A stretch of DNA of 60,093 nt, counting the filler, from Dugesia japonica (taxonomy: Eukaryota), in assembly GCA_001938525.1 (NCBI GenBank). It is 5 parts of 5 records of this genome, joined end to end, with 100 filler letters (N's around TTAATTAATTAA, not from the genome) between each part and the next. Parts side by side here need not be neighbours in the genome. Positions count along the whole stretch, not along the records: positions 49,793 to 60,093 come from MQRL01599980.1; 4 more parts are not named here. One strand, given 5' to 3'. Shown piece by piece: positions 57,357-58,682 of the stretch. Both the position numbers and the translations under genes were made by a program. The notes below the pieces were generated by a model. The model was not told the origin of the DNA, made no database searches, and saw only the letters and a program-made list of their open reading frames with translations. Numbering within the stretch: the first letter of the stretch is position 1; every line of letters begins with the position of its first letter.

Positions 57357-58682
57357 TTATAAAGAAGTTTTTTGAAGTTCATTACTATAAAATCTTCCCA
57401 ATATTTTGTTGCTGTTAAAATTACTGATTTCAAATGTTATTGGAGCTTCATTATAAATTCTAGTAATAATATAAATTCTTTTTGACCATTTAAATTTATA
57501 ACCTTTAGGAAATGTTTTTCCTATTTTAGTTATTCTTACGTGATCTCCCATTTTAAACTTTAATTTCTCATTGTAATATTTATCAGGTTTAATATTAATA
57601 CTTTCAGGATTTATACTTGCTTCTTTAGGTGTAACATTAATTGTTGAATGTATTGTGTTATTGTAATCATTTACTATTTCTTGTATTAAGTCTAAAGTTA
57701 TATTTTGATTTCCAATGGCAGTAAAATGTTGAAAAAGCTTATGTTTAAAAGTTCTATTAAATCTTTCTATAACAACTGCTTTACCTTTATTTTCAGTTGT
57801 ATGCATTTCAATGTTATTTGTTTTACAGAAAGATTTAAAATGTTTATTGTAAAATTCTAATCCTTCATCTGTCCATAATTTATTTGGAACTCGATTATTT
57901 TTTTCTAGAATATTTTCAAATGATTTTGTTATTTCTGGTCCAGTTTTATTTTTAGAAAGTTCAACAAAGGCATATCTAGTGTAAAGATCTATAACTGTTA
58001 ATATTACATTTTTACCTTTTCTTTCTATTCCTTGAAATATTAAATCAGCAGACCAAATTTCTTCTTTTTCATGAACAACTACTTTTCTAAAATGTTTAGT
58101 CTTTCTAAAATCTTTATGAAGTTCTTTACTTAATATTTGTCTGTTATCATCACTTTGTTCTGAGTCAGATTCTTCTTTTATAATTTTTCTCTTATGTTGA
58201 CCTTTACCAATAATGATTTTACCTTTCATAGCTAATTTTACAAGAGCTCTTTGAAATTTTTCTCTTAATGTTGGATTTGGAATATTATTCAAGTCATGTA
58301 TTAAATTTACATCTGCTATATGTCGATCTCTTATGTTTTCTGAATTATAAGCAATGTCATGTTTTAATGCGGCACTATCAACATTATTAATTGGTTCTTC
58401 ACCTGGTTTTGGATTATTATTTTCGTCAAGTCTAATATCTAATCTAGTTCCTGGACCAGTGTAATTATGTTTAAATAAATGTTTTTCACCTGGATATTTT
58501 TCTGTTGTAATTGTTTTTAATAATGTAGATATTACTTTTGAATTTTGAAGATCACCACCTTTAGTTTGTTTTACTTTTGTCCTTTTTTAGGCTACGCTGT
58601 TAATACATAAATCTAAATGTCTTGACTTATTTTTCTTTAAAAGTATTTTACCACAATTGTCACATATAAAGTTTTTAGACAT
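57357..58682 (-). CDS. Zn-finger / parvovirus-type PLA2 / retroviral-type (rve) integrase fusion, 441 codons, one in-frame TAA at 58587-58589
   Basis: ATG at 58682 is in frame with ORF 57357-58292. Motifs: CDNC..H..C; HNYTGPGT and DSAALKHDIAY (PLA2); WSADL, WTDEGLEF, IERFNRT (intact DDE). Confidence 0.88.

Follow-up and report, generated by a model that had tools for sequence, protein, structure and literature searches.

A parvovirus-type PLA2 and an rve integrase are encoded as a single ORF in a lineage of Polinton elements. This fusion is real, conserved and already labelled in published genomes, and in Dugesia japonica it is seen as a pseudogene. The copy is located in the window, the 60,093-nt stretch of D. 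japonica DNA analysed here, within a decayed Alpha-type adintovirus (Polinton/Maverick) whose features are listed in Table 1. The best model, which we consider rather probable on the sequence comparisons below, is that the intact fusion protein is a virion-packaged precursor cut by the element's own adenain.

Table 1. Coordinates of the PLA2-integrase gene and of the other element genes in the window
Feature	Position	Strand	Evidence or remark
Zinc-finger leader, 31 codons, CxxC-x11-H-x3-C, begins at ATG	58590..58682	-	leader profile E 1.5e-5
In-frame TAA between leader and PLA2	58587..58589	-	breaks the window copy
Upstream candidate clan CE protease site TKGG|D	58551..58565	-	GG directly before the conserved Asp in 43/68 scorable homologs
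Parvovirus-type PLA2	58206..58553	-	PF08398 35.3 bits (cut-off 23.9), E 1.4e-8
PLA2 calcium loop YTGPG	58449-58463	-	in-frame motif
PLA2 catalytic HD in HDIAY	58347-58361	-	in-frame motif
PLA2 second Asp	58311-58313	-	in-frame residue
Downstream candidate site IIGK|G, end of last PLA2 helix	58200..58214	-	P2 Gly 91/91; GG or GxG 83/91
Linker, low-confidence, variable	58125..58199	-	3 to 250 residues in homologs; pLDDT <50 at model residues 129-143
rve integrase, without C-terminal chromodomain	57357..58124	-	PF00665 E 1.9e-10
Integrase triad D, D, E	58044-58046, 57867-57869, 57765-57767	-	present in 91/91, 91/91 and 87/88 homologs
Packaging ATPase, A32-type (PacK), directly downstream of integrase	56555..57154	-	Pox_A32 E 7.5e-11
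Major capsid protein (hexon), split by in-frame stop 59166-59168	58695..59972	-	DJR-like_dom E 1.7e-13 and 4e-4
Adenain-like cysteine protease, open ORF; His76, Asp87, Gln110, Cys117 in place	51887..52360	+	Peptidase_C5 E 0.002 (below cut-off)
Penton, two reading frames and N gap	51080..51717	+	tblastn to L017 penton E 7e-17

The element occupies the window from roughly 49.7 kb up to its edge and unites the adintovirus/Polinton gene set, namely hexon, penton, adenain-like protease, packaging ATPase and rve integrase. Decay is general across it: an in-frame stop interrupts the hexon, and the penton is spread over two reading frames. The protease which had been proposed to release the integrase is indeed adenain-like: its catalytic residues are in place, and its below cut-off Pfam score is complemented by 35% identity (E 1.5e-12) to the protease of L017, a related element described below. 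Direct comparison with a fused protease gave a weak match (E 0.065), and a PDB sequence search with the window protease gave no significant one. No pPolB was seen at 40-60 kb of the window, where the element runs to the window edge, and the 25 longest of 326 inverted pairs include neither terminal inverted repeats nor a target-site duplication, the right end of the element being beyond the window. A protein-primed DNA polymerase B fragment split by a stop (28849-29478, minus strand, DNA_pol_B_2 E 6e-4) probably represents another Polinton remnant; it lies about 20 kb away from the element.

Several other observations concern the same DNA, which is AT-rich and repeat-laden around the element. 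Three tandem ORFs with an internal repeat unit of ~490-500 bases and no convincing Pfam match occupy 52350-54378 (plus strand); by eye, the first looks similar to the Cah class. Heptamer-like short tandem repeats (TTTTACA/TTTAACA) at 50913-51067 and 51795-51878, directly upstream of penton and protease, are possible promoter or leader elements. The Walker A loop reads GCSK in the window ATPase and in L031:13392-14027 and GCGK in relatives, which is either shared decay or a lineage variant. A frameshifted Tc1/mariner-type transposase lies at 31091-32012 (plus strand, DDE_3 E 9e-7) and an integrase-like retroelement remnant, judged by eye only, at ~25.6-27.6 kb.

The minus-strand interval 57360-58586 is a single open frame of 409 codons which includes both PLA2 and integrase, and the region 57357-58682 has zero N. 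As predicted, YTGPG, HDIAY, both glycine motifs and the integrase D/D/E all lie in the same frame, and translation confirms that no stop separates PLA2 from the DDE core. The 441-codon frame as reconstructed earlier is not open, being interrupted at codon 32 by the TAA, a position which had been raised earlier solely as a point to check. Since this stop cuts off the only ATG upstream of PLA2 (58682, on the far side together with the finger) and the first in-frame Met after it follows only at codon 152, downstream of the PLA2 active site, PLA2 cannot be made from its own ATG and the window copy is a pseudogene. The upstream extension of "130 codons" is an approximation: 119 codons are open upstream of Met152, while the distance to the ATG is 151 codons. 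Programmed readthrough of the TAA is disfavoured by the other lesions of the element and by ten homologs that have the finger in an unbroken ORF; homologs containing a stop would not appear in protein databases.

The CxxC..H..C finger itself is present and shares homology with leaders of intact relatives, which have the form CxxC-x8-12-H-x5-H. With a profile built from 14 homolog leaders it ranks first of 1698 window segments (runner-up E 0.05). Pfam matches are both weak and below cut-off (zf-C2HC_3 E 0.016, zf_UBZ E 0.039). The finger thus belongs to the gene, but as an optional leader and not as a fixed part of the fusion architecture: C2H2-type fingers are found in 10 of the 91 fused homologs, another 8 have a four-cysteine DUF5679, 51 have a leader of less than 25 residues and 22 have other leaders.

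The parvovirus type of the PLA2 is supported by the PF08398 score and by a predicted fold resembling secreted PLA2, with modest scores. AlphaFold models of the whole protein have two separate domains joined by a disordered linker, whose sequence after the PLA2 glycine motif is unconserved and varies from 3 to 250 residues among fused homologs. As integrases filled up the whole-protein fold searches, PLA2 was folded alone, giving a confident model (pLDDT 90). Its best match among 48,161 PDB chains is rice PLA2 with a middling Z of 7.1 (rmsd 3.9, 90 aligned), and the BFVD list consists mostly of densovirus and parvovirus VP1 (best E 7e-4). A sequence search of the PDB with this domain produced no significant match and tblastn against phage records produced none. 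The active sites of both PLA2 and integrase are nearly invariant across fused homologs; for PLA2 these are His (89/90), Asp (89/90) and the second Asp (90/90), with the third loop Gly in 64/89. With its catalytic residues in place, the domain is a probable membrane-breaking enzyme. A search for longer proteins returned 8 matches out of 4643 candidates, all retrotransposon Pol, which is weak evidence that no larger PLA2 fusion exists.

The integrase has the retroviral integrase fold (foamy virus intasome E 9e-15, MELD virus integrase E 3e-22) together with the D-D-E triad. Pfam finds no Chromo domain in it, and where the integrase end could be located, 53 of 62 homologs terminate 5 residues after it. 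The definition of adintovirus integrase given by Buck et al. (PMC11071296) includes a C-terminal chromodomain, so the window integrase departs from it; Adinto6405, filed as an adintovirus, ends likewise. In one homolog, P0090, the integrase N-terminus resembles an out-of-frame PLA2 end beside a Lys-Lys-Asn run, which could be an indel or possibly a ribosomal frameshift joint.

Surveying integrases for an N-terminal PLA2 has shown that the fusion is conserved: among the best 120 of 205 homologs, 91 have both domains in one ORF and 29 are integrase only, several of the latter starting inside the last PLA2 helix or the integrase and looking truncated. A FastTree phylogeny was built from 165 integrase rows (E <1e-20, at least 80% of the profile covered, the frameshifted L031 dropped). 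The window integrase belongs to the starred clade, where 64 of 67 rows are fused; deeper in the tree fused and unfused states interleave. From these sequences, the fusion is a lineage feature which appears to keep a PLA2 core-protein gene and the adjacent integrase gene as one ORF. That decay or misassembly in this genome produced the fusion by accident, as the several lesions of the element and the long terminal branch of its integrase (0.7) could suggest, is a practically negligible explanation, refuted by the homologs sharing the fusion, by locus L031 at the DNA level and by two published genomes.

A GTDB scan yielded 54 loci, probably mis-binned eukaryotic or viral contigs. Five of them have PLA2: four stand-alone and one fused (L031, with a protease gene nearby). 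L031:9926-17861 is a decayed Maverick on a contig binned as Mycoplasmatales, with a frameshift within the integrase of its fused gene and with penton-like, ATPase-like, capsid-like and protease ORFs. L017:316-12448, on a contig binned as Gammaproteobacteria, is an apparently intact adintovirus-like element coding for PolB, stand-alone integrase, ATPase, stand-alone PLA2, protease, penton and hexon. L019 is a further Maverick in a bacterial bin. PLA2 and integrase also occur together in animal gene models from Oculina patagonica (P0059) and Cordylochernes scorpioides (P0285), which are either real fusions or splicing/gene-prediction artefacts.

The separate PLA2 gene in four of these five loci is what one would expect if a stop between neighbouring genes had merely been lost and the loss tolerated. 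Working integrase would then start separately at an internal Met or come from a spliced transcript, and the long form would act as a PLA2X equivalent. Unfused sister integrases do have their own ATG directly before the same ELH motif, and a Met occurs within the last PLA2 helix or the linker of 50 of the 91 fusions. However, the other 41 have none there, only 21 of 91 have it in the linker, and the fusion is maintained across a deep clade, so we regard tolerated stop loss as improbable.

The expectation that such fusions exist unannotated proved wrong. Stand-alone Polinton PLA2 has been described repeatedly (PMC3671162; PMC5803895; PMC8502044; PMC11296320; 10.64898/2026.06.19.733378), and supplementary file 2 of Buck et al. 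(2024) labels two adintovirus genes Adinto15303_PLA2-Integrase and Adinto6405_PLA2-integrase, besides PLA2X-Adenain and Adintoc3-PLA2X (PMC11071296). The main text of that paper contains no occurrence of "PLA2" and its adintovirus section no discussion of the fusion; the two genes carry the label alone, with processing not discussed there. By eye and unaligned, Adintovirus nemertoderma6405 (Adinto6405, BK066529) and Adinto15303 (BK066759) have the same domain order as the window, with GG before PLA2, GxG after it and an integrase without chromodomain. Adinto6405 also has the window gene set of adenain, PacK, penton and hexon, and a protease N-terminus similar by eye. In contrast to the broken window copy with its leader, both published fusions are intact and lack a fused zinc-finger leader; in Adinto15303 a separate cysteine-rich ORF is listed directly before the fusion.

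PLA2 is bracketed by two glycine motifs, and the survey for their conservation gave a positive result on both sides. Downstream, GG or GxG is present in 83 of the 91 fused homologs (GxG in 69 of the 83) and 8 have neither; upstream, it is found near the domain start in 56 of 68 scorable homologs and missing in 12, while 23 rows were unscorable (leader too short or no aligned column). The background frequency is 112 GG/GxG in 35,460 positions (0.3% per position). Placement of the motifs at the PLA2 boundaries matches the rule of the mavirus protease (MVP), for which cutting at GG|X and GX|G was experimentally mapped (Born et al., 2018, PMC6048507), and we treat them as predicted sites. A cut at the downstream one would give an integrase starting at least 4 residues before the ELH motif, as in stand-alone integrases.

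The motifs were also compared with the adenovirus-protease substrate rule, (M/I/L/N/Q)xGG|x or xGx|G with P4 present at both sites and conserved. IIGK|G does fit the consensus exactly, as was claimed, but this fit is peculiar to the window copy, since M/I/L occupies P4 in only 6 of 83 downstream sites and Lys does in 52 of the 69 downstream GxG sites. The partial fit of TKGG|D is limited to the GG, with Thr at P4 and M/I/L in just 2 of 43 upstream homolog sites. We therefore reject the "exact adenovirus consensus" as evidence for processing. Covariation of the GG and GxG forms was likewise rejected as proof of protease selection: the raw Fisher p of 4e-5 becomes 0.625 when relatedness is corrected for with 9 independent pairs.

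The same flanking GG/GxG motifs are borne by stand-alone PLA2X of Alpha adintoviruses (Starrett et al., 2021, PMC8502044), also described as "CAP" of Sf Mavericks (PMC5803895), a parvovirus-type PLA2 with a pX-like C-terminus in the place where the window fusion has integrase. The glycine motifs thus appear from sequence to predate the fusion and to be inherited from PLA2X, and therefore their conservation alone does not show integrase release. Where integrase follows the PLA2, 125 of 142 retain the downstream motif; where no integrase was seen, 48 of 78 scorable PLA2s do, a further 40 being unscorable. Four PLA2s (P0237, P0251, P0271, P0181) lack the downstream Gly and have intact-looking active-site motifs; the PLA2 fold therefore does not seem to require this Gly, which argues against its purely structural role. 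The position of the invariant Gly at the predicted helix end leaves a capping role possible.

Such a helix cap, inherited from PLA2X, is part of the main rival to our model, in which the protein is packaged but stays joined: only the leader is removed and PLA2 remains tethered to the integrase as parvovirus PLA2 is to VP1. The predicted position of the Gly, the basic P4 at the PLA2|integrase junction, the eight homologs without the downstream motif and the phylogenetically non-independent covariation all suit a tethered protein. We still consider it unlikely, as the second Gly is retained in 83 of 91 homologs, intact PLA2s without Gly exist, and linkers shrink to 3 residues in 13 of 91, which would leave PLA2 little reach from a DNA-bound integrase to a membrane.

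Cutting by another GG-specific enzyme is quite improbable. Candidates would be a host deubiquitinase or SUMO protease, or the vOTU domain of the element's pPolB. Ubiquitin-like proteases follow a strict di-glycine rule, whereas the prevalence of GxG downstream of PLA2 fits the adenain/mavirus rule better. A predicted active vOTU protease is carried by Polinton pPolBs (PMC11161782).

Cleavage by adenain is suggested most strongly by related polyproteins. Seven ATPase-PLA2-integrase proteins (P0274-P0279, P0289) are encoded by one ORF of ~590-720 residues; six have all three Pfam domains and P0289 was assigned by its ATPase motif. Three more (P0096, P0102, P0114) are protease-integrase-chromodomain proteins with an adenain-like protease in front and an (M/L)xGG joint, a form found only in lineages other than the window's. 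The strict pattern [MILV]xG(G|xG), to which Val is our addition, occurs 11 times in the 6177 residues of these ten polyproteins, which represent about three lineages. Ten occurrences are at the upstream domain junction, one in each protein, and an adenain-type site lies exactly at the ATPase-PLA2 joint in 7/7. Of all the observations, these upstream sites are the best indication that adenain cleavage is part of the design of Polinton polyproteins.

The PLA2|integrase joint of the ATPase-PLA2-integrase proteins has Arg at P4. As Lys or Arg persists there even where the upstream junction fits the strict consensus, the PLA2|integrase junction may be a poorer or unused site. On the other hand, Lys at P4 may be tolerated in the lineage, since the GG site of the Adinto6405 core protein has Lys in this position. 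Neither the ATPase-PLA2-integrase and protease-integrase forms nor the cleavage model was found in the literature on Polintons and adintoviruses within our scope, which comprised the accessible content of the papers cited above and of PMC8097293, PMC12220804, 10.1101/341131, 10.1101/2023.08.22.554363, 10.1101/2025.02.07.637071 and 10.64898/2026.10.13.758929, Repbase and subscription papers being outside it.

Mavirus provides a direct precedent for packaging plus processing. Its virions hold integrase (MV02), the clan CE protease MVP and a predicted lipid hydrolase (MV13), the latter in two pieces around GK|G (PMC6048507). The products proposed for the window lineage would similarly share one particle. 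In mavirus, however, these are separate genes, the hydrolase has an alpha/beta fold and is not PLA2, MV02 was not reported as processed, and some GXG sites were uncut in vitro (the same source).

The fusion was also predicted to follow a Gag-Pol-like strategy, a likeness which holds as analogy only. The PLA2-integrase ORF is continuous, and the protease and capsid genes are separate. Retroviral Gag-Pol delivers integrase within a precursor, from which the element's protease frees it. The window lineage differs: there is neither frameshift nor readthrough control, the precursor lacks a capsid protein, and the protease would act in trans.

In the favoured model, the precursor of intact members would consist of an optional basic or zinc-finger leader, GG, PLA2, GG or GxG, linker and integrase. 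The leader would probably bind DNA and help to recruit the precursor into the capsid, where a co-packaged adenain-like protease would cleave the two glycine motifs at maturation. By comparison with parvovirus and mavirus, freed PLA2 would damage the endosomal membrane on entry, and freed integrase would stay with the genome and insert it, acting on the genome ends. Fusion would ensure one-to-one co-packaging. The packaging and cleavage steps are inferred from mavirus and adomavirus core-protein processing. The wider proposal, that Polintons repeatedly deliver integrase at the C-terminal end of a virion polyprotein processed by adenain, with a varying partner and a glycine cleavage motif always at the joint, seems to us about evenly balanced from the sequences at hand.

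As the fusion is already labelled in deposited genomes, what makes these findings valuable is the processing model and the other polyproteins rather than the broken window copy. The fusion and the protease together offer a two-protein test of the Polinton protease substrate rule. That an integrase is naturally fused to a membrane enzyme of virion type speaks for its transport inside the particle. If the wider proposal is true, there would be sequence evidence for integrase, protease and a lytic enzyme inside Polinton particles, and a retrovirus-like packaging logic would have evolved more than once in dsDNA elements.
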